This document shows positions 3,033-63,888 of a stretch of DNA of 64,000 nucleotides, piece after piece (the first letter of the stretch is position 1; each line of letters opens with the position of its first letter). The notes beneath the pieces were generated by a model, which saw only the letters and a program-made list of their open reading frames with translations, ran no database searches and was not told the origin of the DNA. Origin of the DNA: Patescibacteria group bacterium (GTDB lineage: Bacteria; Patescibacteriota; Patescibacteriia; JAXHNJ01); the NCBI GenBank assembly GCA_043812155.1, contig JBDRMK010000030.1, positions 8,407 to 72,406 of the forward strand. Reading direction: 5' to 3'. The position numbers and the translations under genes are program-made.

Positions 3033-6018
<2,986 letters not shown>

Positions 6019-7434: not shown

Positions 7435-7449
7435 TCTCTTCTTGTCTTG

Positions 7450-22698: not shown

Positions 22699-22774
22699 CT
22701 TATTTAGTTGAAAATTCGAATATCTAAATCCTAAATCCTAAACAAATATCAATATTAAAATTACAAATCCGAAA

Positions 22775-22804
22775 CCCCGTTTAGAAATGCGATTTCTAAC
22801 GGGG
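22775..22804. promoter_or_regulatory. Palindromic operator-like element upstream of tatD, nested in larger AT-rich inverted repeat (22724-22868)
   Basis: CCCCGTTTAGAAAT-GCG-ATTTCTAACGGGG; same half-sites recur at 51826-51881. Confidence 0.45.
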
Positions 22805-22876
22805 AAACCGGTTTGAAAAATTGGTGCTTAGAATTTGTTTAGAATTTAGAAATTAGAATTTAGGATTTAAAGAAAT

Positions 22877-23659: not shown

Positions 23660-23694
23660 ATATTTAGTAATTAAGATATTGAGATATTAAGATT

Positions 23695-25256: not shown

Positions 25257-25473
25257 AAGGAAGCAAGCCCCTTTATCACGATAATTTAGGGGCTTTTTAT
25301 CATTGACAAATAAACGCATTTTTTGTAAGGTAAAAGACAATATTTAGGAGGAAATTGAACGTTGACAATCTAACTTTTTCCCAAAAATGGGTTTGAAAGG
25401 GGTGAACCAAAAAGCAAAAAAGCAACTAGTGGCGTTTTCAAGCGATTGTTTTTCAAGAAAGGAAGTGGAAGAA

Positions 25474-26943: not shown

Positions 26944-26956
26944 GGAGGTGGACACC

Positions 26957-29878: not shown

Positions 29879-30502
29879 TTAAGCTTCCTGCGTGATGATG
29901 TCTTTTACTTTCATCAAAGCGGTGATCGTGCTTCTCTCCTGTTCGTTGAGTTTGGCGGTGATATATTTGATTGTTTCATCCATGTTGGGAATAAAAACAT
30001 ATTCCAGGGCGTTGACTCTTCGCCGGGTCTTTTCAATCTCTGAGGCCATCAGTTTGGCCGAGTGCTCGATCTGGGCGAGCCTAACCATATCTTCCAGAAC
30101 TTCAGAAAAAGTCTCTAAAGAAGTATCCAGCTCCGCCGAAGTGGAAGCGAGCGAATAACTGACAAAATCACCTTCGCTTTTGTAATCAAAAAGCGGCGTA
30201 TAGACGCTCATCACGTTTTTAGTAGAGACGGAAAGGGAGGTTTTTTTGGAAGGATAAGCCAGGGCCTCGGCCATCACTTCCGGCCGCATGTCCGCCGAAG
30301 CGAAAATAAAGGATTTAAAAGCCAGGCTCAGCTTTTTTTCCGTTTTTTCCCGGAGTTCCCGGGCCTGCTTGATCACGCCTAAGAATTCCTTCATCAGGCC
30401 GTCGCGCTTTTCTTTCAGCAGTTTGTGGCCGCGGCGGGCGGTGATGACTTTTTTCTTGAGCTTGATAAGCTCCATTCGGGTCGGATTGATAGTGAGGCGC
30501 AC
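29879..30502 (-). CDS. ntpD: V-type ATP synthase subunit D
   Basis: MRLxxNPTRMELxKLKKKxxxAxRGHKLLKEKRD signature. Confidence 0.85.
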   Translation of the reverse strand: MRLTINPTRMELIKLKKKVITARRGHKLLKEKRDGLMKEFLGVIKQARELREKTEKKLSLAFKSFIFASADMRPEVMAEALAYPSKKTSLSVSTKNVMSVYTPLFDYKSEGDFVSYSLASTSAELDTSLETFSEVLEDMVRLAQIEHSAKLMASEIEKTRRRVNALEYVFIPNMDETIKYITAKLNEQERSTITALMKVKDIITQEA

Positions 30503-30509
30503 GTTGGTT

Positions 30510-30603
30510 GATTGGTTAGTTAGTTTGTATTAGACAGTAGACAATAGACATTTGACACGAAACTTTAAGAATTGTCTTATTGTCGATTGTCTTCATGTCT
30601 TAA
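30510..30603. repeat. AGACAAT-type palindromic repeat element (intergenic ntpD/ntpB)
   Basis: TAGACAGTAGACAATAGACATTTGACAC ... inverted GAATTGTCTTATTGTCGATTGTCTTCATGTCT; related copies at 33784-33862 and in-frame in pheS at 55033-55061. Confidence 0.5.
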
Positions 30604-31983
30604 TTAAACTTTGGGCAGATATTTTTCAATATATACTTCTTTAACACGCTTGAGCTCTGAACGCGGCAGGATAGATAAAAGTTTCCAGCCCAGGTCCAGA
30701 GTTTGGATTATCGTCCGGTCTTCATTCAGCCCCTGCCGGACGAATTTATCCTCAAATTCATCCGCGAATTTAGAGAATTTTTTATCGTCTTCTGAGAGGG
30801 CCGCTTCGCCCAAAATAACGGCCAGCTCTTTGGCTTCTTTGCCCCGGGCGTAGGCGGCGAACAATTGGTTTAAGACGCCGGCATGGTCTTCGCGGGTTTT
30901 TCCTTCACCAATGCCTTTGTCTTTCAAGCGGGAAAGTGAGGGCAGGACATCCACGGGGGGATAAATGCCTTTGCGGTGGAGTTCCCGGGAAAGCAGGATC
31001 TGTCCTTCAGTAATATAGCCGGTTAAATCAGGAATGGGATGGGTTTTGTCGTCTTCCGGCATGGTTAAGATGGGAATCTGAGTAATGGAGCCTTTTTTGC
31101 CTTTGATCCGGCCGGCTCGTTCTTAAATCGTGGAAAGATCGGTGTAGAGATAGCCGGGATAGCCGCGGCGACCGGGGATTTCTTTGCGGGCGGCGGAGAT
31201 CTCGCGCAGGGCTTCGCAGTAGTTGGTCATGTCGGTCATAATAACAAGGACATGCAGGTTTTTTTCAAAAGCCAGATATTCGGCCGTGGTCAGGGCGATG
31301 CGGGGCAGGGTTATGCGTTCTACCACCGGATCATCGGCTAAATTGACGAAAAGCACGGCCCGGGCAATGGCGCCGGTCGCTTTGAATTCATTGATGAAAT
31401 ATTCGGATTCTTCAAAAGTGATGCCCATGGCGCAAAAAACCACGGCGAATTCCGATTTTTCCCCTTGGCCGATCACCTTTGCTTGCCGGGCGATCTGACT
31501 GGCCAGGGCAGAATGGGGTAGACCGGAGCCGGAAAAAATGGGAAGCTTCTGGCCGCGCACCAGGGTGTTAAGCCCGTCAATCGTGGAAATGCCCGTTTGA
31601 ATAAAATCATTGGGATAATCGCGGGCAAAAGGGTTGATCGGCGAGCCATTAATGTCTAGTTTCTTTTCCGGGATGATTTTCGGGCCGCCGTCTCTGGGGT
31701 TGCCTGACCCGGAAAAAACCCGGCCGAGCATGTCGGAAGATACGCCGATCTCCATGGTTTTTCCCAAAAATTTCGCTTTGGTGTTTTCTACCTGCAGTCC
31801 CCGAGTTTCTTCAAACATTTGGACTATTGCGGATTTTTCTGAAATTTCCAAGACCCGGCCCCGTCTTTTTTCTCCGGACGGCAATTCCACTTCCACCATT
31901 TCCTGGTATTTCACGCCTTCAACTCCTTCAACAATCAAGAGGGGGCCGGCGATCTCTTTTATGGTTTTATATTCTTTTAACAT
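30604..31983 (-). pseudogene. ntpB: V-type ATP synthase subunit B interrupted by one in-frame TAA (plus-strand TTA at 31123-31125)
   Basis: Two same-frame ORFs (286 aa + 152 aa) together span full B subunit; stop replaces the conserved Tyr in ...DLSTI[Y][29 protein letters not shown]. Confidence 0.75.
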
Positions 31984-31990
31984 AAGTTTA

Positions 31991-33751
31991 TTAAGTTAGT
32001 TGATTTAAAGATTGTTCAATTTCTCGGGCAATTTTTTCAAATTCGGATAATTTATTTTCCGGGATCTGGGGAGACTTGGTGATTTTTTCCTTGACCGAAA
32101 GTGAGATGATTGCTTCCAGCTCTTTGCCCTTATCCAAGGCTTCATTGGCTTTTTCATGGAAATACAGAATATTCTTCAGCATGAGGTATTGTTTTTTCAT
32201 GGAAGTATAGGTGTCAACGGCGTCAAAGGCGTTTTGATGGAGAAAATCCTCGCGGATGGCTTTGGCCGTGTTCAAAACCAGCTGTTCTTTGGCGGAAAGA
32301 GCGTCAAGTCCGACCAGGCGGACGATCTCTTCTAAAGCCGCTTCTTCCTGAAGCAGGCCCATGGCTTTGACGCGCAAAGCCGGCCATTCTTCCGCCACGT
32401 TCTTTTTTAAATATTCTTCAATATCTTCAAGGTATAAAGAGTAGGAGGTCAGCCAGCTGATGGCCGGGAAGTGTCGCTTAAAAGCGAGCTTGTCATCCAG
32501 GCCCCAGAATACCTTGACCACGCGCAGGGTGTTTTGAGTGACCGGTTCGGACAAATCGCCGCCCGGAGGGGAAACGGCGCCGACCACGGTCAGGGAGCCT
32601 TTCCTTCCTTCGCGGCCCAAGCATTTGACCAGCCCCGCTCTTTCGTAAAAACTGGCGGTCCGGGAGCCTAAGTAGGCGGGATAGCCTTCTTCTCCTGGCA
32701 TTTCTTCCAAGCGGCCGGACATTTCGCGCAAGGCTTCGGCCCAGCGGGAAGTGGAGTCAGCCATTAAAGCGACTTTATAGCCCATGTCCCGGAAATATTC
32801 GGCAATAGTAATGCCGGTATAAACAGAGGCTTCGCGGGCGGCCACCGGCATATTGGAAGTGTTGGCGATCAGAACGGTTCTTTCCATCAGCGGTTTTCCG
32901 GATTTTGGGTCTTTTAATTCGGGAAATTCCTGCAAGACGTCCGTCATTTCATTGCCGCGTTCGCCGCAGCCGATGAAAATAATGATATCGGCGTCCGCCC
33001 ATTTGGCCAGCTGGTGCTGGACCACGGTTTTGCCTGAGCCGAAAGGGCCGGGGACGCAGGCGGTACCGCCTTTGGTCACGGGAAAGAAAGCGTCAATGAC
33101 CCGCTGGCCGGTAATCAAGGGTTCAGTCGGGACCATTTTTTCTTTGGTCGGCCTTGCTTGCCGGATCGGCCAGGTTTGCTTCATGGTAAGCGGATGGATT
33201 TTTCCTTTTTCGTCTTCAATTTCCGCCACGGTTTCTTTATTAGTAAATGAACCGTCTGAGATTTTTTTAACGGTTCCTTTTAAAAGGGTCGGGGTAACCA
33301 TGATCTTATGTTCAATCAAAGAAGTTTCTTTGACCGTGCCGAGCACGTCTCCGGCCTCCACAGCCTCGCCGGTTTTGACCGAAGGCTTGAAATTCCATTT
33401 TTTATCTTCATTCAAGGCCGGCACTTCTATACCGCGGGTGATGTAGTCGCCGGCTTTGGCGGCGATGCTGCTCAAGGGCCTTTGGATGCCGTCATAAATT
33501 GAGGTAAGCAAACCCGGGCCCAAATCCACGGACATCGGTTTTTCCGTTCTAAAAACCGGTTCGTCCGGCCCCAGGCCTGAAGTTTCTTCATAAACTTGGA
33601 TATAAGCCTGGTCGCCTTTTAATTGGATGATTTCGCCGATCAGTTTTTCTTTTGAGACTTTGACCACTTCATACATTTTGGCGCCCTCCATGCCCGAAGC
33701 GACGACCAGGGGACCGGAGACTTTGATGATTTTGCCTTGTTTCTCTGTCAT
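31991..33751 (-). CDS. ntpA: V-type ATP synthase catalytic subunit A
   Basis: Walker A GPFGSGKT, catalytic A-subunit architecture with non-homologous insert. Confidence 0.9.
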
Positions 33752-33783
33752 AATATTTTAGTTATGTTGTTAATTTATTTATT

Positions 33784-33862
33784 TAGACAATTGACAGTAG
33801 ACAATAGGATATAAGTCTAACATTCCTGTCTAATGTCAAATGTCTATTTTCTAATGTCCTAT
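33784..33862. repeat. AGACAAT-type palindromic repeat element (intergenic ntpA/ntpF)
   Basis: TTAGACAATTGACAGTAGACAATAGGA ... TCCTGTCTAATGTCAAATGTCTA inverted arms. Confidence 0.5.
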
Positions 33863-34194
33863 TTATTAAAAAGAATGTCCGAGCCGACGGCCTGCTCCAC
33901 GATCTTTCTTAGATTCTTTAGGCCCGCGCCGGTGGTGCCGTGCTGGCTGGGAATGGAAATAACCGCGGGCAATGTAAGTTTTTGCAGTTTTTCTATTTCT
34001 TTGCCCGCTTTTTCGTACCAGTTTTCCGTGATAAAAACGATGGCAAAATTTTCTTTTTCTATTTTTTGGATAGCGTTCTTTACTTCTTCAATATTAAAAA
34101 CCCCGAAAGTTTCCACGCCTAAGGCGGAGAAACCCAAGATTGAATTTGGGGAACCGATCAGGGCGATTTTATATTTTTTGTTATTTTCTACCAT
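33859..34194 (-). CDS. V-type ATP synthase subunit F
   Basis: KIALIGSPNSILGFSALGVE signature; operon position. Confidence 0.7.
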   Translation of the reverse strand: MVENNKKYKIALIGSPNSILGFSALGVETFGVFNIEEVKNAIQKIEKENFAIVFITENWYEKAGKEIEKLQKLTLPAVISIPSQHGTTGAGLKNLRKIVEQAVGSDILFNK

Positions 34195-35174
34195 AATTCT
34201 CTCAGCCTTTCTTTAATTTCAGCCGGCGGAACGCCGTTCAATTTGCCGGTCATGATCAGCCTGACCTGGCGCAGGGCGTTTTTATTGGCGTAATAATAGG
34301 CGACTGCCACTTCCGGGCCGTAAGGAAATCTTTTTGTTTCTTTAAGAAAATCCAGCTCATAATTTTCAAAAGCCTGTTCCAGCCGCCACAAATTCTGGTT
34401 TTCCAGGTAGGCTTCAATAATCGGCCGGAATTTATTTTCAAAATAGAAGCAGCAGGCGTCCAGGGCTTCTTTTGGCTCTTTGTCGTATGAGGCCAGCAGG
34501 TCTTTTTTGGGGATTCGGCCGCCGGGAATGATCTCTTCGGCCAGCCATTTGGCGTCTTTTTTGAGTCTTTTCGCTCTTAAGAATATTTTAATATTGGCTA
34601 GAGTGATCTGGAGCTTGAGAAAATCAGAAATATAATTATTATTTATGGCGGCCGCCGTCTTATCAAGATAAGAAAACATTTCTTTATCAAAGAAAGAGTC
34701 AATACGATGAGGGGAGTTGTCCTGGGAAAATAAATCTTTCGTTTTTTCAATGATTTTAGATAGATGAGGCGGCAGGTCAACTTTTGCTCCGCTTAAGATA
34801 TGATTTCTTAAACTTTCGGAAGGGATGGTGCCGACCGGGCTTTCTTCCTCTTTCAGATCCTGGTGGCTGTACTTTGACTTGAAAATAACTTTTAGGTTGT
34901 GGAAATCAAAGCGGCTGAAAAGAAAGGCCAGCAGCCGGGAATCATTAAGCAGGTTTTCAAACATCAGTTTGGTTTGTTTAAGATCCTCGTTCAGGGCTTT
35001 TTGGAAATCCCGGGGAGCCACTTCCAAAAGATTATCCGCGTATGCCGTGTCGTTAAAGACGCGAAAAGCGGCCTCCAAGGAAGGCGCGTCAATCATTCTT
35101 TCCATGTCGTTCTGATTGAGCAGCTTGCTTTCGAGGCTTTTTAAGAGTCCGAAGATGTAGGGGTAATCAGCCAT
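34188..35174 (-). CDS. V-type ATP synthase subunit C (d)
   Basis: Size and operon position; helical protein. Confidence 0.7.
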   Translation of the reverse strand: MADYPYIFGLLKSLESKLLNQNDMERMIDAPSLEAAFRVFNDTAYADNLLEVAPRDFQKALNEDLKQTKLMFENLLNDSRLLAFLFSRFDFHNLKVIFKSKYSHQDLKEEESPVGTIPSESLRNHILSGAKVDLPPHLSKIIEKTKDLFSQDNSPHRIDSFFDKEMFSYLDKTAAAINNNYISDFLKLQITLANIKIFLRAKRLKKDAKWLAEEIIPGGRIPKKDLLASYDKEPKEALDACCFYFENKFRPIIEAYLENQNLWRLEQAFENYELDFLKETKRFPYGPEVAVAYYYANKNALRQVRLIMTGKLNGVPPAEIKERLRELW

Positions 35175-35224
35175 CGGCTAGATATTGAGATATTAAGCGA
35201 TTAAGATATTAAGATTTTAGGGCA

Positions 35225-35785
35225 TTAATTGAAAAGAATCTGAGCGACTTCGGTTTCCAGCTCGTCCCGGCTTTGGTCGATCAGGGTTTCGTAGCGATTG
35301 TCAATTTCCAGTTTCGGTGAAGAAAAAATAAAACCTGCCTGGCCCGGGATATTTTCTGAAGCCAAGGGAAAATGACCGTGAGCCAGGATTTTTTTAAGCC
35401 AAGCGTGGCTTGCTTTGGTGGCGATTATTTTTCCTTCTTTTTCCCGGGGCAGTCTGTCTATCAGTTGCTGGAGAAGCTTGGTTTGACTGTTTTCCGGCCG
35501 ATCGGCCAATTGGGTGGCGCTTTCGGAGAAAATCGCGGCCAGGATTTTTTGTTTTTCCGCCAGGATCCTTGATTTCTTTTCGTTTTCCGCCTGAAATTTT
35601 GCCTGTTCTATTTTTTTGGCCGCCTCTTTTTTTTCTTCTACCAGGATATTTTCCTGATAGATCTTTTCCCGGCGGCGGTAGTCTTCTTTTAAAGCGGCGA
35701 CTTTCTTTTTTCCCTCTTCTTGGATCTTTTTTATCTCTTCCTCGGCTTCTAAGACGAGGCTTTTTAGCAGTTGTTCTAAAGCCAT
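35225..35785 (-). CDS. V-type ATP synthase subunit E
   Basis: Charged coiled-coil N-terminus, globular C-terminus; operon position. Confidence 0.7.
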   Translation of the reverse strand: MALEQLLKSLVLEAEEEIKKIQEEGKKKVAALKEDYRRREKIYQENILVEEKKEAAKKIEQAKFQAENEKKSRILAEKQKILAAIFSESATQLADRPENSQTKLLQQLIDRLPREKEGKIIATKASHAWLKKILAHGHFPLASENIPGQAGFIFSSPKLEIDNRYETLIDQSRDELETEVAQILFN

Positions 35786-35790
35786 AAAAT

Positions 35791-36282
<492 letters not shown>

Positions 36283-38250
36283 TTATTCTTTATTAATAAT
36301 TCTTAAATATTTTGAGGTTTTTTTAAAAAAACGGAAACGGCTGCCGCCGCCTTCCATGAATTTGGGGAAAAATTCCACGAACTGAAGCCGGCCGGAATGG
36401 ATGAAAGCGCCTAAGGAATTGATGGCGATATTAAAAATGTGGCCGCCGATCAGGATCAGAACAGCGAACAGATAGCCGACAAAGGGGATCATATCAATGG
36501 CCAGCCCGGCAATAAGATTGATGACCATGGCGATGATGCCAGTGGCCAGGCCCAAGGCGAGCAGCCGGGAGTAGGAAAGAGTGTCGGAAAGATAATTAAC
36601 CGCGCCGTATAAACTGTAAAGGCCGAGCAGGGGTTTTAAGAAAATATTTTTGGTCTGGCGGCCATTGGCGACAATGAGAGCGAGGACCGCGGCCAGCAGG
36701 AGATAAAGAAGAAAAGGATTTAAAGAGGCCGGAAGGACATTTACTTTTGCCAAAACCCAAAGGATCAAAATAAGCAAGCCTGAAAACCAAAGCCCCGGGC
36801 CTAACAAGCCTTCCGTTGCTTTTTTATGTTTTATTTTCCAGAAGCAGCTGATAAGCAGACCGGTCAGGATCTGGATAAGGCCGAAGCAAAAAGCGATGAG
36901 CAGGACCAGCAGGGGATTTTTGATCGGGTCTATAACTTTAAAAAATTCCACGAATTGCCGGAACCAATTATGAGACATGGTCGAGATGTCAATGCCGAAC
37001 CAGCTGCCGAACAGGGCGCCGACGATCAGAGTGGAAAGGCCGCCGTAGAAAAGCAGCCGGATAAGTTTCATTTCTGAAGCGGGTTTTTTGCTGATTTTCA
37101 GCATGGCGAACATCAGCGAACTGATGACCAGGCCGTAGCCGGCGTCGGAAACGCAGAAGCCAAAAAATATAAAAAAGAAGGGCGCCAGGTACGGAGTCGG
37201 GTCTGGCTCAGAAGGAAGGGGCATGCCGTAGATGCCGGTAACTGATTCAAAAGGCTCGATCAGATTATTATTTCTGATGACCACGGGCGGGTTTTCTCCT
37301 TCTTCCAGCGCCATTTTTTCCAGAGCGAAATTAGGGGTAATGGCCGCCATTTTATCCGATAAAACCTCGGCAAAACATTCTTCCATGAAAAAAAGCAAAG
37401 CAAAAGTTTTTTGCGTGCCGGTGGCTTTGTCCAAGGCTTCTTTCTGCTCTTTTTTCCAGGCCAGGTAATCGGAGACCAGCCGCAAATTGGGCAGATGAAG
37501 AGTGAGTTTCTTGATCTTATTTGCCAGTTCCTCCTTGTCTTTTTCCGCTTTGATTATTTCCCGCTGGCAGATCTCGGTTTCCCCCCGCGCCTGGCACTGG
37601 ACGGCCGGGATCTGAGCGGACTTGAAATCGAATTTAACCAATAAATCCTTGATATTTTTTTCCAGCTCTTTTTTATAGATCAAGGCGAAATGGACTTCGC
37701 GGTTCCCGATGTAAGATTTTTCAAAAGCGATATTTTTAAGTTTTTCCGTCGCTCTTAAAAACTCATCGTAATTATTTTCATTGACCGAGCCCAGAATGAT
37801 CTTGGTCTTTTCCGTTTCGATTTCGTTCTTCGGGATAAAATCCAGGTTGATCCAGGCGGCCATGATATTTTTCAGGCTTTTTTGCTTTTCAATAGTGCTT
37901 TCCAGCGCGTTAAGATTCGCTTCCGCTTCTTCGCAATCCGCCACCACTTTTTCGTAATCAAAATCCTTTACGAATTTGTTAAAATCTTTTTCTGTGAAAG
38001 CGGTTTTTTCCGGCAGCAGCTTTTTTTTCAATGGGATTTTTGCCGTGTCGTAAGGCGCTAAAAAATTCAGGGCGAAAACGACCTGGGCCAGAAGATATTC
38101 GGGATTGCTGTTTTGCTTGGCCTTCAGTTTTTCTTTCTTCTCCCAGTTTTCTATTTGGCAGGCGCCGAAATTATGGAGCAATTCAATGACCGCTTCCTGG
38201 TGGGCAAGAAGGGAGGTAAGGGCATATTTTGCGACGGGACTTTGCGCCAT
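36283..38250 (-). CDS. ntpI: V-type ATP synthase subunit I (a)
   Basis: N-terminal cytoplasmic coiled-coil domain plus C-terminal polytopic membrane domain, 655 aa. Confidence 0.85.
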   Translation of the reverse strand: MAQSPVAKYALTSLLAHQEAVIELLHNFGACQIENWEKKEKLKAKQNSNPEYLLAQVVFALNFLAPYDTAKIPLKKKLLPEKTAFTEKDFNKFVKDFDYEKVVADCEEAEANLNALESTIEKQKSLKNIMAAWINLDFIPKNEIETEKTKIILGSVNENNYDEFLRATEKLKNIAFEKSYIGNREVHFALIYKKELEKNIKDLLVKFDFKSAQIPAVQCQARGETEICQREIIKAEKDKEELANKIKKLTLHLPNLRLVSDYLAWKKEQKEALDKATGTQKTFALLFFMEECFAEVLSDKMAAITPNFALEKMALEEGENPPVVIRNNNLIEPFESVTGIYGMPLPSEPDPTPYLAPFFFIFFGFCVSDAGYGLVISSLMFAMLKISKKPASEMKLIRLLFYGGLSTLIVGALFGSWFGIDISTMSHNWFRQFVEFFKVIDPIKNPLLVLLIAFCFGLIQILTGLLISCFWKIKHKKATEGLLGPGLWFSGLLILILWVLAKVNVLPASLNPFLLYLLLAAVLALIVANGRQTKNIFLKPLLGLYSLYGAVNYLSDTLSYSRLLALGLATGIIAMVINLIAGLAIDMIPFVGYLFAVLILIGGHIFNIAINSLGAFIHSGRLQFVEFFPKFMEGGGSRFRFFKKTSKYLRIINKE

Positions 38251-38271
38251 TTCTTTATCTTTATTATGCTT

Positions 38272-38586
38272 CTAATTGATTATTTTTCGGACAATCTGAT
38301 CAACCGCTTTTTGTTTTTTTTCCGGCGGTATCCGGCGGATTTTTTCCAATTCTTTCTCGGCCTCTTCTTTGATATTTTTCCTGATTCTTTCGATTGACCG
38401 GTCTGTTTCCGCCATGATCGCCTTAATTTCCTTGTCCAGGGATTTTTTTGCCATGGAAATTTTTTCTTCTCCTGCCGCTTTTTCCTTCGCCATCTCATCG
38501 TTGATCATATTTTCGACTTTTTGCTTCAGCTTTTCCGCCTTTTTTTCTTCTTCCTGGATCCGATCCAAGGTATTTTTTTGGGTCAT
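38272..38586 (-). CDS. V-type ATP synthase small coiled-coil subunit (G/H-like)
   Basis: 104-aa highly charged helical protein at head of operon. Confidence 0.5.
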   Translation of the reverse strand: MTQKNTLDRIQEEEKKAEKLKQKVENMINDEMAKEKAAGEEKISMAKKSLDKEIKAIMAETDRSIERIRKNIKEEAEKELEKIRRIPPEKKQKAVDQIVRKIIN

Positions 38587-38762: not shown

Positions 38763-39461
38763 ATGAATTTACGAAAAATATACCGTCAATTATCGCAAAA
38801 ATACGGTCCTCAGGACTGGTGGCCTCTGTTAGATATCAAGATGTTGAGATATCGAGATATTTCCGCCCGAGGCGGACCGGCCTTGGGCCGGAAGATATCA
38901 AGAAAGAAAATTAAGGTATTTTCTGAGAAAAACATGTTTGAGGTCTGCCTGGGCGCGATCTTGACCCAGAATACGAATTGGAAAAATGTGGAGAAAGCCA
39001 TTTTAAATTTAAAAAGAAAAAAAATATTATCCCCAAGAAAAATATTAAATACGCCGCCAGGTAAATTAAGGGGGCTAATTCGTTCTTCCGGCTATTACAA
39101 TGAAAAAACCAAAAAGCTTATGACATATAGCTTATGGCTTATGGATAATTATAAGGGAAGTTTAAAGAAATTTTTTAAGCAATCATTAAAAAAGTGCCGC
39201 GAAGAATTGCTGGCGGTCCATGGCATCGGGCCGGAAACTGCCGACTCAATTTTATTATATGCCGGCCGCAAACCTTCTTTTGTCATTGACGCCTATACCA
39301 GGAGACTTTGTAAAAAATACGGAGTGGAATTCAAGACGTATGACGAGTACAAAGAATATTTTGAAAAGCGTTTGCCAAAGTCGTATAAATTGTATAATGA
39401 ATTCCACGCGCTGATTGTGCAATGGGGTAAGAATAATTCTTCAATCAGGAAGGTAGACTGA
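38763..39461 (+). CDS. HhH-GPD DNA glycosylase (endonuclease III-like) with in-frame repeat-element insertion
   Basis: GAILTQNTNWKNVEKAI, LxxLxGIGPETADSILLYA HhH-GPD motif; residues ~25-60 (LLDIKMLRYRDISARGGPALGRKISRKK) encoded by a dispersed repeat. Confidence 0.75.
   Translation: MNLRKIYRQLSQKYGPQDWWPLLDIKMLRYRDISARGGPALGRKISRKKIKVFSEKNMFEVCLGAILTQNTNWKNVEKAILNLKRKKILSPRKILNTPPGKLRGLIRSSGYYNEKTKKLMTYSLWLMDNYKGSLKKFFKQSLKKCREELLAVHGIGPETADSILLYAGRKPSFVIDAYTRRLCKKYGVEFKTYDEYKEYFEKRLPKSYKLYNEFHALIVQWGKNNSSIRKVD
38829..38915. repeat. Dispersed repeat: GATATCAAGAT-type AT repeat plus tandem GC triloop hairpins, inside glycosylase ORF
   Basis: TAGATATCAAGATGTTGAGATATCGAGATATT + CCGCC-CGA-GGCGG ACC GGCC-TTG-GGCCGG; related copies at 59741-59850 and 50355-50470 (reverse). 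Confidence 0.6.
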
Positions 39462-42546: not shown

Positions 42547-45500
42547 ATGAAAATCAACCCAGTGCAACATAAAGCCATTGAACACGGCCAAGGACCGTTG
42601 CTTATCGTCGCCGGGGCCGGGACGGGAAAAACTACGGTCATAGCGGAGCGTTTAGCCTATTTGATTAAAGAAAAGAAGGCTTTACCACAAGAAATTTTGG
42701 CTTTGACTTTCACGGATAAAGCGGCCGGGGAAATGGAGGAAAGGGCGGATATATTGCTGCCTTATGGTTACGTGGATCTGTGGATCTCTACTTTTCATTC
42801 TTTCGGGGAGAGAATATTGAAGGAACACGCCTTGGATATCGGCCTGGACCCGGGTTTTAAATTATTGAACTCGGTTGAGCAGTGGCGCATAATCCGGCAG
42901 AATTTCAGCCGGTTTGAGCTGGAATATTACAAGCCCTTGGGCAATCCCACCCGGTTTATTTACGCTTTGCTCAAAGTTTTTTCCCGAGCCAAGGACGAGA
43001 ATGTCAGCCCGGCCAATTTTCTGGCTTACGCGGAAAAGAAAATGAAAGCGGATAATGGCGAAGAGGCCCAAAGAATTTTAGAAGTGGCGAAAGCTTATCA
43101 GACTTACCAAACCCTTTTAACAGAAAAAGGCGAATTGGATTTCGGTGACCTAATTATCCGGGCTTTGGACCTTTTAAAACAAAGAAAAAATATCCTGGAA
43201 AAATATCGTCAGCAATTTAAATATATTCTCGTTGATGAATTCCAAGACACGAATTTCGCCCAGTATGAGATGCTGAAATCATTAGCCGCTCCAAAAAATA
43301 ATATTACCGTGGTGGGGGATGACGACCAGTGTTTGCCGGGTGAAACTTTGATAAAAACTAAGTTTGGAGAAAAGAAAATAAAAGATATAAAAGCCGGGGA
43401 TACAGTCTTGGCGGCCGTGGGCAAGGGCCATACCAGCTACTCGCCAGTAAAAAAGGTTTTTAGAAATAATAAAGAGGCCAGATTTTTACAAATTAAAACT
43501 AAATCCGGCCGAAAAATAGAAGTGACGGATAATCATAAAATGTTTTGTTTGGTACCGAAAGTTTCTGATAAGAAATATTATTATGTATATTTAATGCAGC
43601 GCCAGGGTTTTGGCTGGCGGCTAGGTATTACCAATGATTTGGCGACTCGATTGAGGTTAGAGCGTTCAGCGGATAAAATTATAGGCTTAAGGGCTTTTAA
43701 TAAAGAGATAGAAGCCAGATTCTATGAAAGTCTTTGGGCGGCAAAGTATGGCTTGCCGACGGTTTGTTTCTGCCCGCGCGACAATATGATAAGAGGTGAA
43801 TGGCTTGACCGGCTTTATCGATCAATTGGCACGGAAGAAAACGCCCGAAAGCTGGCATGTGATTTGCGCGTTGATTTAACCGCCCACCATTTTTGTCTTG
43901 ACAGTGTTTTTCGGGGGAATAAATTAAGAAACAAGATCAATCTTGAATTGTGTTACCGCCGTTATATCAGCAAGACCGGCCGCAAGTTTTTAGTTTCGCC
44001 AAAAGTGTCTCATCTTGTCAGTTTAGAGACCTCAAATTTGCAGGTGGTCGCCAGTTTAAGAAAAGGAGGGTATCAGGCCCATAGGGCGAAAAAGGGCTAT
44101 CGTTTTCGGGTAGAGAGTCCTGATATTGGAAAAGTCGGTAAGATCGCTTTGGCCTGGCAGAAAATATCCGCAGGAATACTTGAACAGAAATTTTCCGTGG
44201 GAAAAATAAAAATTCAGCACCGTAAAGCCTTGGTTATGCCGGCGGGCAACCTTTTGCCCGGTCATTATCTGCCGATCATAAAAGGCAAGGAAATAATTTA
44301 CGACCAGATTATTGAGATAAAAGAAGAAGTTAAAGCGCGAACTGTTTTTGATTTGGAAATAGAAAAAACGCACAATTTTATTGCTAATGGGGTGGTGGTG
44401 CATAATTCTGTTTATAAATTCCGCGGCGCGGCTATTTCCAATATCCTGGAATTCAAAAAAGATTTTCCAAATTGCGAGGAAATTGTCCTGACGGAGAATT
44501 ACCGCAACCGCCAGAACATCCTTGACTTGTCATACAAATTTATTCAGTTAAACAATCCGGACCGTTTGGAAGCGCGATTAGCCAAGAAGCAGATTGACGA
44601 CAAAGGTGAATTGCTGACCAAGAAAGTGACCAAAAAGTTGATCGCGCAAAATAAAGGTTTGGGGAAAATAGAACATTTGCATTTTATCACTCAAGAGGAA
44701 GAAGCCTTGGGGGTGGTGGAGAAAATATTGGCCATTAGAAAGAAAGACCGCAAATTGACCTGGAACGACTTTGCCATTCTGGTGCGAGCCAATGACCAGG
44801 CGAATATTTTTATTAATCTAATGAACAATCAGGAAATTCCTTATCAATACGTGGCTAATCGAGGTTTATACCAGAAACCCGAGATCATGGATCTGATCGC
44901 TTATTTAAAATTACTGGATAATTACCATGAAAGTACGGCTCTTTTCCGGGTGATTAACATGCCGATTTTTCATTTTGCGCCGGAAGACACGCATACTCTA
45001 TTAAATCACACTTATCGTAAAAATGTTTCTTTGTATGAAGCGATGCAAAGCGCGGAAGCGAGAGAAAAATTAAAACCTCAAACGCAGAAGGATCTGGATA
45101 AATTATTGGAAATGATCAATAAACACACGGCTTTGGCGTGCGAAAAAGGCGCGAGCCGGGTTTTGTTCCAGTTTGTGGAAGATTCCGGTTATTTCAAATA
45201 TCTTTCCAAAAAAGAGACGATTCAGAGCGCGGAAAGTATTTTGAACATCAACCAGTTTTTCAAGCAGACAGAGGAGTTTGAAAGATTGAACGCGGATAAA
45301 TCCGTGAAAAATTTTATCGCGGAGCTGGATCTGGCGATTGAAGCCGGAGAAGAAGGAGCCTTGGGCCATCAATCCATGGAAGAGGGGCCGGAAAGCGTCA
45401 AAGTGATGACCATTCATCAAGCTAAAGGCTTGGAGTTCACTCATGTTTTTATGGTTAATTTAGTGGATAAGAGATTTCCGTCTATTGAAAGAAAAGACCC

Positions 45501-46518
45501 AATTGAACTGCCGGATGAATTAATTCAGGAAATTATTCCCGAAGGAGATGTGCATTTACAAGAGGAAAGACGGTTATTTTACGTGGCCATGACGCGGGCC
45601 AAGCAGGGTCTTTATTTTACGACGGCTGAAGATTACGGCGGAATGCGGAAAAAACGTTTATCCAGATTTTTATATGAAATTGAATTGGAAAAATTCGGGC
45701 GAAGGGCCGGAGCAAAAATGAAACAGCAAAGACTGATCTTTGAAAAAATGGCCGGGCATAAAAATATCCTCACTTTAAAAAGAAATCTGGACTGGCTACC
45801 GCAGAAGTTTTCCTTCACCCAATTGAAAGCTTTTGAAGTCTGCCCCTATCAATACCGCTTCGCCCATATCTTACATGTGCCGGTCAAAGGCAAAGGCGCT
45901 TTTTCTTTCGGCAAAACCATTCATAACACCATGCACGAGTTTTATGTCGCCATCCAAAAAGGGGAAAAGCCGACTTTGGAAGACTTATTGGCGATGTATG
46001 AAAGAAATTGGATTGACGAGTGGTATGATGACAAGGCGCATGAAGAAAGAAGAAAAGCCAAAGGGAAACAGGTTTTGCAAGAGTTCTACAAAATTAATGA
46101 AAAAACCTTTAAGGCGCCGAAATTCCTGGAGCAGGGCTTTAACATAAAGATCGGCCTCCACACGATAAAAGGCTTTATTGACCGGGTGGACGAAATGCCG
46201 GATGGCCGGGTGGAAATTATTGATTATAAAACCGGCAATCTGCCCAAGGTAAAATCCAGTATTGATACCGAGCAATTGCTAATTTACGCCTTAGCCTGTC
46301 AGGACGTTTTTAAATTAAATCCGGCCAAATTGACCTTCTATTATATTGAAGATAATAAAACCTTTACTTACCAGTCTAGGCAGGAGGAGATAGAGGAGGT
46401 CAAAAAAAGAGTGGTGGGCACGATTGAGAAAATCCTGAAAAGCGATTTCAAGGCGACGCCGTCGCAATACAAATGTAAATACTGTGATTTTAAAGAAATT
46501 TGTGAATATAGAGTTTAA
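42547..46518 (+). CDS. UvrD/PcrA-family helicase fused to C-terminal Cas4/AddB-type PD-(D/E)xK nuclease, intein-containing (1323 aa precursor)
   Basis: Walker A GAGTGKTT, motif II VDEFQDT, motif III split as VGDDDQ | intein | SVYKFRGA; C-terminal nuclease IIDYKTG with CPYQYRF...CKYCDFKEIC cysteine cluster. Confidence 0.85.
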   Translation: MKINPVQHKAIEHGQGPLLIVAGAGTGKTTVIAERLAYLIKEKKALPQEILALTFTDKAAGEMEERADILLPYGYVDLWISTFHSFGERILKEHALDIGLDPGFKLLNSVEQWRIIRQNFSRFELEYYKPLGNPTRFIYALLKVFSRAKDENVSPANFLAYAEKKMKADNGEEAQRILEVAKAYQTYQTLLTEKGELDFGDLIIRALDLLKQRKNILEKYRQQFKYILVDEFQDTNFAQYEMLKSLAAPKNNITVVGDDDQCLPGETLIKTKFGEKKIKDIKAGDTVLAAVGKGHTSYSPVKKVFRNNKEARFLQIKTKSGRKIEVTDNHKMFCLVPKVSDKKYYYVYLMQRQGFGWRLGITNDLATRLRLERSADKIIGLRAFNKEIEARFYESLWAAKYGLPTVCFCPRDNMIRGEWLDRLYRSIGTEENARKLACDLRVDLTAHHFCLDSVFRGNKLRNKINLELCYRRYISKTGRKFLVSPKVSHLVSLETSNLQVVASLRKGGYQAHRAKKGYRFRVESPDIGKVGKIALAWQKISAGILEQKFSVGKIKIQHRKALVMPAGNLLPGHYLPIIKGKEIIYDQIIEIKEEVKARTVFDLEIEKTHNFIANGVVVHNSVYKFRGAAISNILEFKKDFPNCEEIVLTENYRNRQNILDLSYKFIQLNNPDRLEARLAKKQIDDKGELLTKKVTKKLIAQNKGLGKIEHLHFITQEEEALGVVEKILAIRKKDRKLTWNDFAILVRANDQANIFINLMNNQEIPYQYVANRGLYQKPEIMDLIAYLKLLDNYHESTALFRVINMPIFHFAPEDTHTLLNHTYRKNVSLYEAMQSAEAREKLKPQTQKDLDKLLEMINKHTALACEKGASRVLFQFVEDSGYFKYLSKKETIQSAESILNINQFFKQTEEFERLNADKSVKNFIAELDLAIEAGEEGALGHQSMEEGPESVKVMTIHQAKGLEFTHVFMVNLVDKRFPSIERKDPIELPDELIQEIIPEGDVHLQEERRLFYVAMTRAKQGLYFTTAEDYGGMRKKRLSRFLYEIELEKFGRRAGAKMKQQRLIFEKMAGHKNILTLKRNLDWLPQKFSFTQLKAFEVCPYQYRFAHILHVPVKGKGAFSFGKTIHNTMHEFYVAIQKGEKPTLEDLLAMYERNWIDEWYDDKAHEERRKAKGKQVLQEFYKINEKTFKAPKFLEQGFNIKIGLHTIKGFIDRVDEMPDGRVEIIDYKTGNLPKVKSSIDTEQLLIYALACQDVFKLNPAKLTFYYIEDNKTFTYQSRQEEIEEVKKRVVGTIEKILKSDFKATPSQYKCKYCDFKEICEYRV
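43330..44406 (+). mobile_element. Intein (359 aa) in helicase motif III
   Basis: Begins with Cys after DDDQ (block A CLPGETLI), block B TxxH (VTDNHKM), ends ...ANGVVVHN followed by Ser +1; extein junction restores VGDDDQSVYKFRGA. Confidence 0.8.
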
Positions 46519-47063: not shown

Positions 47064-47384
47064 ATGAGAACCTATTATGTTTATATATTAAAGTGTTCCG
47101 ACGGCTCTTACTATGCTGGTATTACTAATTATTTGGAAAGAAGAATTTACGAACACCAACAGGGCTTAATTAAAGGCTGTTATACCCATAGTCGTCGGCC
47201 CTTGAAATGCGTTTTTGCCCAGGATTTTAATGATGTGGGCTTGGCGATTCAGACGGAAAAGCAGATAAAAGGCTGGTCAAGGAAGAAGAAGGAATCATTG
47301 ATAAAAGGTGATTTTAACACGATAAAGTTATTTGCCAAACGTCCCGCTTCGAGGCTCCGCTTTCAGCGTCGCACCTCAGCGTGA
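47064..47384 (+). CDS. GIY-YIG nuclease-family protein
   Basis: YYVYILKCSDGSYYAGITNYLERRIYEH (GIY...YIG with Arg/Glu); C-terminal 14 aa encoded by the flanking palindromic repeat. Confidence 0.7.
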   Translation: MRTYYVYILKCSDGSYYAGITNYLERRIYEHQQGLIKGCYTHSRRPLKCVFAQDFNDVGLAIQTEKQIKGWSRKKKESLIKGDFNTIKLFAKRPASRLRFQRRTSA

Positions 47385-47929: not shown

Positions 47930-48017
47930 TAAAATATTAACAAGGCGATTTTTGGAAATTTGCGAGTTTAGGGTTGTTTGAGATGTCCAGATGTCTAGAT
48001 ATCAAGATATCGAGACA

Positions 48018-48380
48018 TCAAGATTTTTTGGCTAAACCGCTGATCATGCAATTTAGGCCAATGGCCAGGCCATTGTAGCTTTCGTCGATGACTTTGAAGT
48101 TTTCCTCTGGCAGGTATTTCTGATCCAAGGCGATCCTCAAATGGCTTTCAATTTCAAAAATTTCCGCCCGTGCAATATAAAGCACGCGGATTTTATCTTT
48201 GGGATGGTATCGGCCGTGGCTTTCCGCGATATTAGCTGCCACCGATACCGCCGATCTTCTTAACTGCATAGTTAAGCCGAAAATCTCGTTTTTCGGGAAA
48301 GCCTTGGTGATTTGGTAAATTTGGCTGGCAAGCGCCTGGGCTTTTTGCCAGACTTTTAAATCAAAAAAAGCGCGAGTCAT
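48018..48380 (-). CDS. Four-helix-bundle protein (Avd/23S-rRNA-IVS protein family, TIGR02436-like)
   Basis: DLKVWQKAQALASQIYQITKAFPKNEIFGLTMQLRRSAVSVAANIAES; flanked by inverted GATATCGAGA/CATCAAGAT repeats (47978-48016, 48447-48485). Confidence 0.8.
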   Translation of the reverse strand: MTRAFFDLKVWQKAQALASQIYQITKAFPKNEIFGLTMQLRRSAVSVAANIAESHGRYHPKDKIRVLYIARAEIFEIESHLRIALDQKYLPEENFKVIDESYNGLAIGLNCMISGLAKKS

Positions 48381-48496
48381 ATATATCCTTTCGCGCCACC
48401 ATTTTGTCTGTAATTATTTTATATTCGTTTATTAATTTTGTCAACGTCACCTCTCGATATCTTGACATCTTGACCTCTCGATATCTAAAACCATCC

Positions 48497-48525
48497 TTGA
48501 CAAACCCGGTTTTTTCTAATATACT
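48497..48525 (+). promoter_or_regulatory. Putative sigma70 promoter of typA
   Basis: TTGACA, 17-nt spacer, TATACT. Confidence 0.5.
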
Positions 48526-48566: not shown

Positions 48567-50351
48567 ATGGAAATCAGAAACATCGCCATTATTGCTCACG
48601 TGGACCACGGCAAAACCATGCTGACTGACGCTTTAATGCGCCAGACGAATTCGGCCGCCGATGCCAGCGTGACCATGGATACTAACGCCCTGGAGCAGGA
48701 GCGGGGGATCACGATTTATTCCAAGAATACGTCGATTTTTTATAAGGGGACGAAGATCAATATCGTGGACACGCCCGGGCACGCGGATTTCGGCTCGGAA
48801 GTGGAGCGGGTTCTGCGCTCTATTGACTCGGTTTTATTGCTCGTGGACGCCCAGGAAGGCCCGATGCCGCAGACCAAATTCGTGCTGAAAAAATCTTTGG
48901 AGCTCGGGATCAAGCCGATCGTGGTCATCAATAAAATAGATAAAAAAGCGGCCCGGCCGGAATGGACGCACGAGAAAGTCCTGGAATTATTCATGGACTT
49001 GAACGCCGATCAGGACCAGCTTTATTTCACCACGGTCTACGCCATTGCCAAAGACGGGGTGGCCAAAATCAATTTGGAAGATGAATCAAAGGATCTGACC
49101 CCGCTTTTGGAAACCATTTTAGCCCAGGTTAAACCTGCCGCCGGAGAAATTGACAAGCCTTTTTTATTTCAGCCCTTTAACCTGGCTTATGACAATTACT
49201 TGGGCCGTTTGGGTATCGGCCGGGTTTATCAGGGAGTAGTCAAAGTCGGGGACCAGGTTTTTGTGAAAAAAGATGACGGCAAGATCTTACCGGGAATAAT
49301 TACCCGGCTTTTTACTTTTGAAGGCTTGACCCGCAAAGAAGTGCCGGAAGTATTTGCCGGCGATATCGTGATGCTGGCCGGACTGCCGGAAATTTATATC
49401 GGCGACACAGTTGCCGCGAATAAAGAAGAAGACTTATTGCCGGCCATCAAAGTGGACGAGCCGACCATCGGTTTGAATTTTTTGGTAAATAATTCTCCGT
49501 TTTGCGGCCACGAAGGCAAGTTTGTCACCAGCCGGCAGATCAAAGAAAGATTAAAAAAAGAATTGGAAGTTAATGTTGGCTTGAGAATTGATTTTTCCTC
49601 CAATGATTATTATAAAGTTTACGGCCGAGGCGAACTTCACATCGCTATCTTGCTGGAAAACATGCGCCGAGAAGGCTATGAGCTCCAGGTTTCCCAGCCG
49701 CGCGTCATCTTGAAAGAAGTTGACGGGAAGACCCTAGAGCCTTTTGAAGAAGTGACCCTGGATATCAAGGAAAAATACAGCGGCGTGGTCATTAAAAAAA
49801 TGTCCAAGCGCAAAGGCCGTCTTTTAGAAATGAGGCCCGAGCAGGCGCACACCCGCCTGGTCTATGAAATGCCGACCCGCGGTTTATTAGGTTATCGGAA
49901 TGAATTCATCGTGGATACGCGGGGTGAGGGGATCCTTTGCAGCCAATTCATCGGCTTCAAACCCCATGCCGGAGAAATTGAAAAGCGGCAGACCGGCTCT
50001 ATGATCTCCGGCGAGACCGGCAAGACCTTGTCTTACGCTTTGGCCAATCTTCAGACCCGCGGGGTGCTTTACGTCGGCCCCAACACGGAAGTTTATAAGG
50101 GCCAGGTCATCGGCAACACGGCCAAAGGCGACCAGATGACAGTCAATCCGATCAAAGGCAAGCGCATGAGCAATATGCGTTCTTCCAGCGCGGACATCGG
50201 CATCCAGATCACGCCGCCGATGCTTTTGTCGCTTGAGCGGGGCTTGGAAGTTATGGCTGATGACGAGTTTTTGGAAATCACGCCAAAAAGCGTCCGTCTG
50301 CGCAAGCAGTTCTTAACCGAGAATGATCGGATAAGAGCAAGTAGGACTTAG
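48567..50351 (+). CDS. typA: Translational GTPase TypA/BipA
   Basis: IRNIAIIAHVDHGKTML G1, DTPGHADF G3, NKIDK G4; 594 aa EF-G-like architecture. Confidence 0.9.
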   Translation: MEIRNIAIIAHVDHGKTMLTDALMRQTNSAADASVTMDTNALEQERGITIYSKNTSIFYKGTKINIVDTPGHADFGSEVERVLRSIDSVLLLVDAQEGPMPQTKFVLKKSLELGIKPIVVINKIDKKAARPEWTHEKVLELFMDLNADQDQLYFTTVYAIAKDGVAKINLEDESKDLTPLLETILAQVKPAAGEIDKPFLFQPFNLAYDNYLGRLGIGRVYQGVVKVGDQVFVKKDDGKILPGIITRLFTFEGLTRKEVPEVFAGDIVMLAGLPEIYIGDTVAANKEEDLLPAIKVDEPTIGLNFLVNNSPFCGHEGKFVTSRQIKERLKKELEVNVGLRIDFSSNDYYKVYGRGELHIAILLENMRREGYELQVSQPRVILKEVDGKTLEPFEEVTLDIKEKYSGVVIKKMSKRKGRLLEMRPEQAHTRLVYEMPTRGLLGYRNEFIVDTRGEGILCSQFIGFKPHAGEIEKRQTGSMISGETGKTLSYALANLQTRGVLYVGPNTEVYKGQVIGNTAKGDQMTVNPIKGKRMSNMRSSSADIGIQITPPMLLSLERGLEVMADDEFLEITPKSVRLRKQFLTENDRIRASRT

Positions 50352-50354: not shown

Positions 50355-50470
50355 TTTCGGCCCAAGGCCGACCCGCCTCGGGCGGGAAGTTGTTTAATTA
50401 TTGAGAAATTGAGAGGATTTAGGAATTAATAATTTGTTTAGGATTTAGAATATAGAGTTTAGGATTTGCG
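50355..50470. repeat. Dispersed repeat copy (reverse orientation): tandem GC triloop hairpins plus TTTAGGATTTAGAAT-type AT repeats
   Basis: CGGCC-CAA-GGCCG ACC CGCC-TCG-GGCGGG is reverse complement of the 38866-38900 copy with compensatory changes. Confidence 0.55.
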
Positions 50471-59640: not shown

Positions 59641-59740
59641 ATCTCCCTCCAGAAAGTCAGGATGGATAATATAAATGATTTAGAAAATGGACATTGGCAA
59701 TCAAGATTATCAGAAGTTATAAAATTTGTCAAGCCCATAT

Positions 59741-59850
59741 TTAGATATCAAGATATTTGCGCCCGAGGCGCACCCGCCTTGGGCGGGGAGCGATTAAGAT
59801 ATTAAGATATTGTCCGCCAAAGGCGGATCAGCCTCTGGCTGAAGATATTT
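59741..59850. repeat. Dispersed repeat copy: GATATCAAGATATT + GC triloop hairpins + GATTAAGATATTAAGATATT + further hairpins
   Basis: GCGCC-CGA-GGCGC ACC CGCC-TTG-GGCGGG; TCCGCC-AAA-GGCGGA; TCAGCC-TCT-GGCTGA. Confidence 0.55.
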
Positions 59851-59898
59851 AGAGGCTAAGAAAAAATTATATATTATACATTATTAATTATAAATTAA

Positions 59899-61947
<2,049 letters not shown>

Positions 61948-63790: not shown

Positions 63791-63888
63791 TTGCTTAGTT
63801 AATTTGTTGAATAGTTGATTAGTTAATTAGTTTAATAAATAATTTTCGGTAAATATAGACAATTTGGTGGCTATAAAGGAAAAAATTT

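Follow-up and report, generated by a model that had tools for sequence, protein, structure and literature searches.

A 30-nucleotide double-hairpin element, probably mobile, found in frame within protein-coding genes of Patescibacteria

Analysis of a 64,000-nucleotide stretch of a Patescibacteria group bacterium genome (contig JBDRMK010000030.1, positions 8,407 to 72,406; hereafter the window) reveals a short repeat, here called element E, one copy of which (38862–38891) lies within the gene of an HhH-GPD DNA glycosylase. E is exactly 30 nt long and consists of two abutting, perfect 15-nt hairpins, each with a GC-rich stem of 6 bp and a loop of 3 nt. In our reading, to which we assign a probability of about 0.75, E is a miniature, non-autonomous mobile DNA element defined by its structure, and 38862–38891 is one copy of it. 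The family is distributed phylum-wide in Patescibacteria, is mostly intragenic and is apparently undescribed: the literature searched contains no description of the E core DNA strings or of the encoded peptides SAQGGSASGG and SARGGSALGG, none of palindromic elements or MITEs (transposable elements of the miniature inverted-repeat kind) in Patescibacteria or the Candidate Phyla Radiation (CPR), and none of double-hairpin elements outside organelles, an absence that is not in itself proof of novelty.

The host gene of the first copy is the open reading frame (ORF) 38763–39461 on the plus strand, which encodes an endonuclease III-like HhH-GPD DNA glycosylase of 232 residues from its ATG (Pfam HhH-GPD PF00730, E-value 7e-15, and PF00633; E-value 2e-23 against the 3-methyladenine glycosylase of PDB entry 1pu6) and is 100% identical to the protein of a Patescibacteria metagenome-assembled genome (MAG) at NCBI. 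The element, on the same strand (TCCGCC-CGA-GGCGGA followed by CCGGCC-TTG-GGCCGG), is read in frame as the decapeptide SARGGPALGR, residues 34–43, within a sequence (38829–38915) of the form TTAGATATCAAGATGTTGAGATATCGAGATATT-TCCGCCCGAGGCGGACCGGCCTTGGGCCGG-AAGATATCAAGAAAG... Two orthologs, L001 and L002, are syntenic, with the same V-type ATPase operon adjoining the glycosylase gene; aligned with their DNA, the window has ...GAGATATT and AAGATATC... separated by a clean insertion of 30 nt, TCCGCCCGAGGCGGACCGGCCTTGGGCCGG. The unoccupied site of the orthologs reads ...GATT|AAGATAT..., and there is no target duplication. In an alignment of 28 sequences the closest orthologs (65–84% identity) lack exactly SARGGPALGR, which is absent from all 27 aligned homologs, and the E motif is found in none of 119 other glycosylase homologs.

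A preliminary description of this locus had already placed a palindromic repeat in frame within the ORF, which we can confirm, and had credited it with about 30 extra residues, a figure that reduces to 30 nt or 10 residues. The closest orthologs without the hairpins keep both the N-terminal segment LLDIK..., with the left flank LLDIKMLRYRDI, and KISRKKIKVF. The approximately 20 flanking residues that had appeared to be extra are thus shared with the orthologs; they are encoded by an AGATATYR 8-mer tandem array that occupies 38831–38861 on the plus strand to the left of E (Tandem Repeats Finder period 8) and continues on its right at 38892–38906, same strand (AAGATATCAAGAAAG; ortholog empty site ..ATT|AAGATAT..). 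The same array is carried in frame by L001 and L002, which are free of E at this site. The description had asked whether orthologs possess the extra segment without repeat-like DNA: they do so for the flanking residues, not for the 10-residue insert. By these alignments, the flanking residues and their array are older than the insertion, and E entered the gene recently and seamlessly; the in-frame AGATATTR array was already in place, and the junction within it that received E is TT|AA. In the AlphaFold model of the protein (predicted local distance difference test score, pLDDT, 91.8) the HhH-GPD core with its helix-hairpin-helix motif is intact (pLDDT >90), and a β-hairpin formed by residues 22–27 and 43–48 lies outside it. 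The insert sits at the tip of this β-hairpin with a local pLDDT of about 56; the 10 inserted residues are therefore predicted to lengthen the tip of a surface β-hairpin away from the catalytic core.

Each hairpin has the form N-CCGCC-NNN-GGCGG-N', the consensus being TCCGCC-NNN-GGCGGA twice per element. When a covariance model derived from 21 distinct copies is applied to the window with filters off, five full-length copies are recovered, with E-values of 1e-8, and no other matches; the glycosylase copy scores 52.1 bits. Likewise, a pattern for the 28-nt hairpin core matches three times in the window at up to 3 mismatches and not once in 100 dinucleotide shuffles, and a repeat listing of the window grouped five related cores as one family. 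The recurrence of a GC-rich double triloop hairpin, as proposed in the preliminary description, is thereby established, with five copies in place of three, among them a second in-gene copy, overlooked earlier, on the minus strand of a glycyl-tRNA synthetase (GlyRS) gene (16079–16108, 52.4 bits). Of the three intergenic copies, one lies on the minus strand at 50357–50386 (52.8 bits), 5 nt past the stop codon of BipA/TypA (ORF 48567–50351) and with AGTTGTT direct repeats on both sides. Of the other two, the copy at 59758–59787 (plus strand, 52.2 bits), upstream of gyrB, lies within an AGATATTR array, and that at 59813–59842 (minus strand, 42.4 bits) is diverged and inverted with respect to it. 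This last copy belongs to a subfamily with AGA/TTT loops, also found at L001:4380–4409, and one of its stem pairs has changed from C:G to A:T, a compensatory change.

The intergenic copies had been described as longer repeat units. At 59741–59850 a repeat is indeed present, but as two elements in opposite orientation, separated by an 8-mer array (AGCGATTA AGATATTA AGATATT, 59788–59812, plus strand); at 50355–50470 only 50357–50386 is homologous to E, the AT-rich remainder (50390–50470) being a separate TTTAGRA array. The GATATCAAGATATT motifs that had been counted as part of the unit likewise belong to the separate, pre-existing AGATATTR array, and a composite repeat of AT motif plus hairpins can be rejected, as the orthologs keep the AT-rich array without the hairpins. 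Such AT-rich tandem arrays with periods of 7–8 nt, drawn from a few unit families, fill many of the short intergenic spacers of the window (13076–13109, 23658–23693, 35180–35219, 47981–48024, 48459–48486, and 59789–59811), the array at 38831–38860 being the one in frame inside the glycosylase gene; TTTAGRA arrays are found at 22724–22869 and 50437–50467, TAGACAR arrays at 30529–30602, 33784–33858, and 55028–55059, and a further array at 63788–63832 (TAGTTGAT).

Two scans extended the analysis beyond the window. The first used a degenerate pattern with fixed loops and stem positions free to pair or not, applied to GTDB contigs with one genome per species; the second, applied to metagenomes, used a pattern with fixed stems and free loops. 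The counts of E given from here on for these scans refer to the matches listed, which are samples and not totals, and all sequences compared are metagenome assemblies. Folded as single-stranded DNA, the window copies each form two hairpins of −11 to −14 kcal/mol (z-scores −3.3 to −4.7), the glycosylase copy reaching −13.4 kcal/mol. Over the 21 distinct sequences 99.2% of the cells are paired and double (compensatory) changes occur in 6 of 12 pairs; none of 500 shuffles reaches the observed values, which collapse in slid controls. In the scans, the outer pair is T:A or C:G in 267/270 and 269/270 copies for the two hairpins, and complementarity is kept at the stem positions left free to be G or C in 128/130 and 129/130 copies, against an expectation of 25%. 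The compensatory stem changes noted in the preliminary description are therefore real. The loops, on the other hand, are highly diverse when the pattern leaves them free (AAA/TCC, AGA/TTC, AAA/TCG, AAA/TCT, and others). With the RNA in context, RNAfold favours a single long hairpin that pairs the first with the second hairpin; this fold was discarded because its covariation does not exceed that of shuffles. No Rfam family reaches its gathering score anywhere in the window, where only sub-threshold noise appears at 59700–59900, and the window holds no tRNA or tmRNA.

The second in-gene copy allows the behavior of E to be followed at a single site. The gene (15308–16645, plus strand) encodes a glycine--tRNA ligase (Pfam tRNA-synt_2b and HGTP_anticodon; E-value 5e-141 against a PDB GlyRS), and its minus-strand element is read on the plus strand as SAHGGSASGG, a peptide absent from PDB GlyRS structures and from the closest homologs P0121 (87% identity) and P0122 (80%). 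Comparison of the window sequence TGG CCG TTC|E|GAT AAA with TGG CCT TTT|GAT AAA of the empty, 87%-identical ortholog L124 again reveals a seamless insertion of exactly 30 nt. Of 121 homologs, 32 have an element at the corresponding protein site, PF|DKG, in full, decayed (SSKGG..., SGGAG...), half (SAKGG, SSQGG), or nested form. Filled and empty states are distributed patchily among Patescibacteria lineages, and a simple neighbor-joining tree requires at least 23 changes between them. The site is thus a hot spot of repeated, precise gain and/or loss. Six GlyRS orthologs have flanks that are saturated at synonymous sites; in these, TCC GCC and GGC GGA of the stems are essentially invariant and the loop codons are free (CAT, CAA, AAA, CAC; TCG, TCT, ATG, GAA). 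Two GlyRS homologs, P0141 and P0239, carry another 9–11 residues inserted within the element-derived decapeptide.

The genome scan yielded at least 120 loci, nearly all labelled Patescibacteria and covering at least 12 candidate classes; the labels among the loci listed include Magasanik-, Falkow-, Uhr-, Buchanan-, Kaiser-, Nomura-, Moran-, Doudna-, Nealson-, Staskawicz-, and Tagabacteria as well as Paceibacterota, Saccharibacteria, and "Patescibacteria group". Two matches with non-complementary stems, from Actinomadura and a betaproteobacterium, are chance matches. Some third-party-annotation MAGs labelled Gammaproteobacteria or otherwise are probably mislabelled, since the DnaK of one of them (L122) shares 74% identity with its counterpart in a Patescibacteria MAG. 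A collection of 2.9 million viral contigs contained a single match, and phages were accordingly set aside as vectors of E. Presence of the element differs even between close relatives: L001 carries a copy of the AGA/TTT subfamily between the genes for V-ATPase subunits AC39 and E, at the very place that an 8-mer array alone occupies in the window (35180–35219), so that with the glycosylase gene the two genomes differ at two loci in opposite directions. At orthologous sites of other pairs (L008/L037, L091/L115, and L096/L102) E is identical or altered in a compensatory manner while the flanks have diverged.

E does not avoid genes. Among random positions in the same loci 81% fall within ORFs of 150 residues or more; for the 266 copies of E the share is about 74%. 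More than 95% of 270 copies are free of stop codons in all six frames and, given also its length of 30 nt, E neither truncates a gene nor shifts its frame. The hairpins are moreover codon-phased, each as TCC GCC NNN GGC GGA, with the loop as a single codon; owing to this phasing and to its palindromic nature, the element encodes Ser-Ala-X-Gly-Gly twice in one phase whichever its orientation, i.e. a small flexible loop. This phase is the one that prevails. In the genome set about 93 of 130 copies lie in stop-to-stop ORFs of at least 150 residues, and 82 of these read SAQGG-SASGG (67) or SARGG-SALGG (15), about 11 falling in the other four frames; in the metagenome set 93 of 123 copies lie in ORFs, 76 of them in the SAxGG phase with peptides such as SAKGGSASGG, SAQGGSASGG, and SAEGGSASGG. 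Overall, approximately 82% of the ORF copies share the single phase. This bias and the preference for Gln, Ser, and Lys over Arg and Leu in the loop codons are evidence that selection acts on the peptide translated from E, and they argue against removal at the RNA level. Other hosts include a UvrD-like helicase, DnaK, and further proteins. In DnaK, four lineages have E in the C-terminal tail, its exact position differing slightly between them, and one of these, L054, has a second, separate copy in a loop of the nucleotide-binding domain.

The sites of insertion share short flanking bases. A T is found at position −2 in 104/125 copies of the genome set and 104/123 of the metagenome set, and an A at +2 in 86/125 and 103/123, respectively; the flanks are symmetric with the consensus TTT|E|AAA, and insertion favors TT(N)|(N)AA. 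These bases belong to the target, since both empty sites (ATT|AAG in the glycosylase and TTT|GAT in the GlyRS gene) carry them. A search for target-site duplications of 1–25 nt in 266 elements found none above the control. The few cases of direct repeats of 7–9 nt correspond to copies within pre-existing arrays of 7–8 nt; indeed, a minority of intergenic copies, including copies in other Patescibacteria, sit at unit junctions of such lineage-specific arrays. Noncoding copies show no orientation bias with respect to GC skew (16:17), so that a replication-strand bias of the kind expected for single-stranded insertion by IS200/IS605-like elements was rejected. Copies also occur in partial tRNA duplicates beside intact tRNA genes, either at TTC|GA of the T-loop or within the anticodon loop (L040 5712–5802, adjoining tRNA-Arg at 5816–5888; also L082, L103, L109, L071, L059, and L118), and element and tRNA fragment are sometimes tandemly duplicated together.

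These observations can be accommodated by the following scheme for a mobile element. The form of E that is copied would be a single strand folded into hairpins or else a cruciform, and E would be moved by an enzyme acting in trans and conserved in Patescibacteria. This enzyme would recognize the stems rather than the loops, and would cut and join at short, palindromic, AT-rich TTN|NAA sites; selection would then remove insertions in other phases or at non-permissive sites. Our best guess for the enzyme is a nuclease/ligase of the HUH type or of another structure-specific class, since hairpins are substrates of such enzymes and their action produces no duplication. Several points weigh against this reading and the enzyme proposed. 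E has neither the GTAG/CGTC tag of repetitive extragenic palindromic (REP) sequences, nor subterminal guide sequences, nor a strand bias. No transposase or other candidate mobilizing gene is present in the 64-kb window; the reverse transcriptase at 7747–8850 belongs to a diversity-generating retroelement (DGR), and the small GIY-YIG protein encoded at 47064–47384, of which another adjoins the GlyRS gene in L125, has no link to E. The invariance of the stems at synonymous sites in deeply diverged GlyRS orthologs, with varying loops, is unexpected for a purely selfish, decaying element and could mean that the hairpin is selected for a function. Near-identical stems throughout a phylum are also unusual for selfish repeats, and the weak depletion in ORFs (74% versus 81%) leaves more ORF copies than random insertion followed by purging would predict. 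Finally, the movement of E is deduced from metagenome assemblies.

Some of these points would fit a cis-acting signal, for example a DNA-uptake or recombination signal, or the binding site or hairpin substrate of a protein found throughout the phylum, that selection or biased uptake or conversion keeps intact, as with the uptake signal sequences (USS) and DNA uptake sequences (DUS) of Pasteurellaceae and Neisseria, its presence in genes being a tolerated by-product. The synonymous constancy of the GlyRS stems, the identical or compensated copies between diverged flanks in the three pairs of loci, the stem sequence kept phylum-wide, the symmetric AT-rich TTT|E|AAA flanks, and an ORF depletion smaller than expected all speak in its favor. 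We nevertheless hold it to be improbable: five copies per 64 kb is a low density beside the roughly one per kb that known uptake sequences reach, E gains new sites by clean insertion of 30 nt and not by point mutation, the GlyRS site has changed state at least 23 times on the tree, decayed copies exist (SSKGG..., SGGAG...), and no receptor or binding protein is known. A speculative possibility, to which we give limited weight, is that E is a signal actively maintained throughout the phylum, its stems kept constant even at synonymous sites of essential genes through recognition by a conserved Patescibacteria machine, which could be a DNA-uptake or recombination apparatus or a structure-specific nuclease/ligase, and that this recognition also drives the seamless insertion at the centers of TTN|NAA palindromes; if true, Patescibacteria proteomes would be remodelled by a codon-phased element of 30 nt through a mechanism of mobility or drive that is undescribed in bacteria.

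For the glycosylase copy alone, an origin other than transposition is possible, if doubtful: AGATATTR arrays, which occur at several loci and some of which bear E, may have passed it on through template switching, gene conversion, or ectopic homologous recombination. The insertion site lies within an array common to the orthologs, AGATATYR units are found at seven or more places in the window, arrays bearing E occur at 59741–59850 and, in L001, between V-ATPase genes, and the copies at 38862 and 59758 share the flank TTAGATATCAAGAT...ATT. However, no window copy has the stem variants of the glycosylase copy, hence no donor is seen, and the GlyRS and DnaK copies and most of the approximately 190 ORF copies listed are without arrays or flank homology. 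These array-free copies imply that a homology-independent mechanism must exist anyway; array-embedded and other copies follow the same junction rules so far. The idea that E is a mini-intron or intervening sequence removed from the RNA, leaving the protein unaffected, could draw on the rRNA intervening sequences of Patescibacteria and on the copies in tRNA-like T-loops and anticodon loops. It is very improbable in view of the peptide-level selection indicated by the single-phase bias and the loop codons; the tRNA-associated copies, furthermore, lie in partial duplicates beside intact genes and not in functional tRNA genes, and no Rfam family matches. That there is no element at all, only chance GC-rich palindromes or a convergent Gly/Ser linker, is a negligible prospect. 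Short, low-complexity sequences and the commonness of Ser/Ala/Gly linkers would allow it, but the shuffles and covariance-model E-values, the occurrence of identical DNA in noncoding regions and in both orientations, the fixed synonymous codons, and the clean indels do not.

In its behavior, E recalls the Rickettsia palindromic elements (RPEs), dispersed palindromic repeats that are found in frame in unrelated housekeeping genes, where they add a peptide tolerated at the protein surface, and that have no known transposase (PMC10969869). E shares with them its palindromic nature and its in-frame presence in ORFs, with two such copies in the window and about 74% of the listed copies in genes, and it likewise adds a peptide. 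RPEs are, however, about 100–150 bp long, encode 30–50 residues, and comprise about ten families, all restricted to Rickettsia, whereas E measures 30 nt and 10 residues, is codon-phased, comprises two perfect 15-nt hairpins, is present throughout Patescibacteria, and is unrelated in sequence. The RPE-like in-frame proliferation suggested in the preliminary description thus stands as to the clean insertion (30 nt relative to L001/L002, none in 119 homologs), and needs correction or extension as to size, composition, and scope; the GlyRS copy and the phylum-wide, mostly intragenic family make the analogy stronger than was proposed. In architecture and behavior only, E also resembles mitochondrial double-hairpin elements (DHEs) and GC clusters (Allomyces DHEs, yeast GC42, and the repetitive hairpin elements of sponges), which are short, GC-rich, and made of one or two hairpins, occur sporadically between relatives in intergenic but also genic positions, and in Allomyces are without flanking duplications (PMC2800124, PMC4478555). 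The likeness to the Allomyces type concerns the two adjacent GC-rich hairpins, the sporadic presence, and the lack of a flanking duplication. These elements are organellar (fungi, sponges, algae) and mostly intergenic, and in yeast the GC clusters are accompanied by AG/ACT duplications of the target; E is set apart, by description, by its bacterial chromosomal location, here among V-ATPase, aminoacyl-tRNA synthetase, and gyrB genes, its mostly intragenic occurrence, its fixed length of 30 nt, and its phase selection.

Among bacterial repeats, REP sequences and their REPIN doublets, associated with RAYT, an IS200/IS605-like Y1 transposase, are likewise short, GC-rich, multi-copy hairpins thought to be moved as single strands without target duplication. 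They are extragenic, imperfect palindromes with a GTAG/CGTC tag and are species-specific together with their RAYT gene, whereas the hairpins of E are perfect to their very ends, about 74% of its copies are intragenic, its distribution is phylum-wide, such a tag lies within 8 nt of only 13/270 copies, and no RAYT gene is found in the window. Classical MITEs (Correia, ERIC, BOX, Nezha, and others) are comparable as small, non-autonomous repeats with occasional in-frame fusions, but have terminal inverted repeats derived from insertion sequences (IS), target-site duplications, and typical lengths of 100–400 bp; E has neither a duplication (266 elements) nor IS-like ends. USS and DUS share with E short conserved motifs, AT-rich flanks, and a location in genes in frames that give tolerable peptides; their cores of 9–12 nt arise by point mutation at about one per kb, whereas E arises by insertion and is about ten times sparser in the window. 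Intrinsic (rho-independent) terminators were also considered and discarded: a downstream run of at least four T is present in only 36/270 copies, the flanks of E are T-rich upstream and A-rich downstream on both strands, and most copies lie in ORFs.

The CPR makes up a large share of bacterial diversity and its tiny, streamlined genomes are expected to contain little selfish DNA. If confirmed, E would be the smallest known bacterial repeat that routinely colonizes protein-coding genes and the first such family described for the CPR. Its design illustrates how compatibility with proteins can be built into a nucleic-acid parasite or signal, and E accounts concretely for loop insertions in proteins essential to Patescibacteria, such as GlyRS, DnaK, helicases, and glycosylases. 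Annotators and structure predictors should expect 10-residue inserts of this kind. E may also serve as a simple marker for recent divergence and for the binning of Patescibacteria contigs. Which enzyme inserts or removes a pair of hairpins seamlessly is a tractable question, Saccharibacteria being genetically tractable.

Several other features of the window deserve mention. The DGR noted above spans 6227–8850; its variable region (6727–6860, at the 3' end of ORF 6227–6862) differs from the template region (7302–7435) at 20 positions, 18 of them template adenines, and it is accompanied by a bAvd-like ORF (7459–7869) and the reverse transcriptase. A gene for a 23S-rRNA-intervening-sequence protein (four-helix-bundle, bAvd-like; 48018–48380, minus strand) lies between inverted repeats of 46 nt (47970–48015 and 48452–48497) that are 83% complementary and made up of GATATC-type 8-mers, and the locus 47970–48497 has the appearance of a cassette outside any rRNA gene. 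The UvrD-like helicase/PD-(D/E)XK nuclease encoded at 42547–46518 contains an intein (Intein_splicing/Hint) at about residues 259–620 and measures 1323 residues, compared with 967 for the syntenic ortholog of L002. The V/A-type ATPase operon at 29879–38586 (I, C/K, E, AC39, F, A, B, D) retains its synteny in L001 and L002. The stretch 25387–28468, with IMP dehydrogenase and adenylosuccinate synthetase genes, has a G+C content of 0.56 as opposed to about 0.43 for the window and may have been acquired horizontally. A CDP-archaeol synthase-like (CarS-like) gene is found at 62411–62965, next to a CDP-alcohol phosphatidyltransferase-like gene at 61955–62407.

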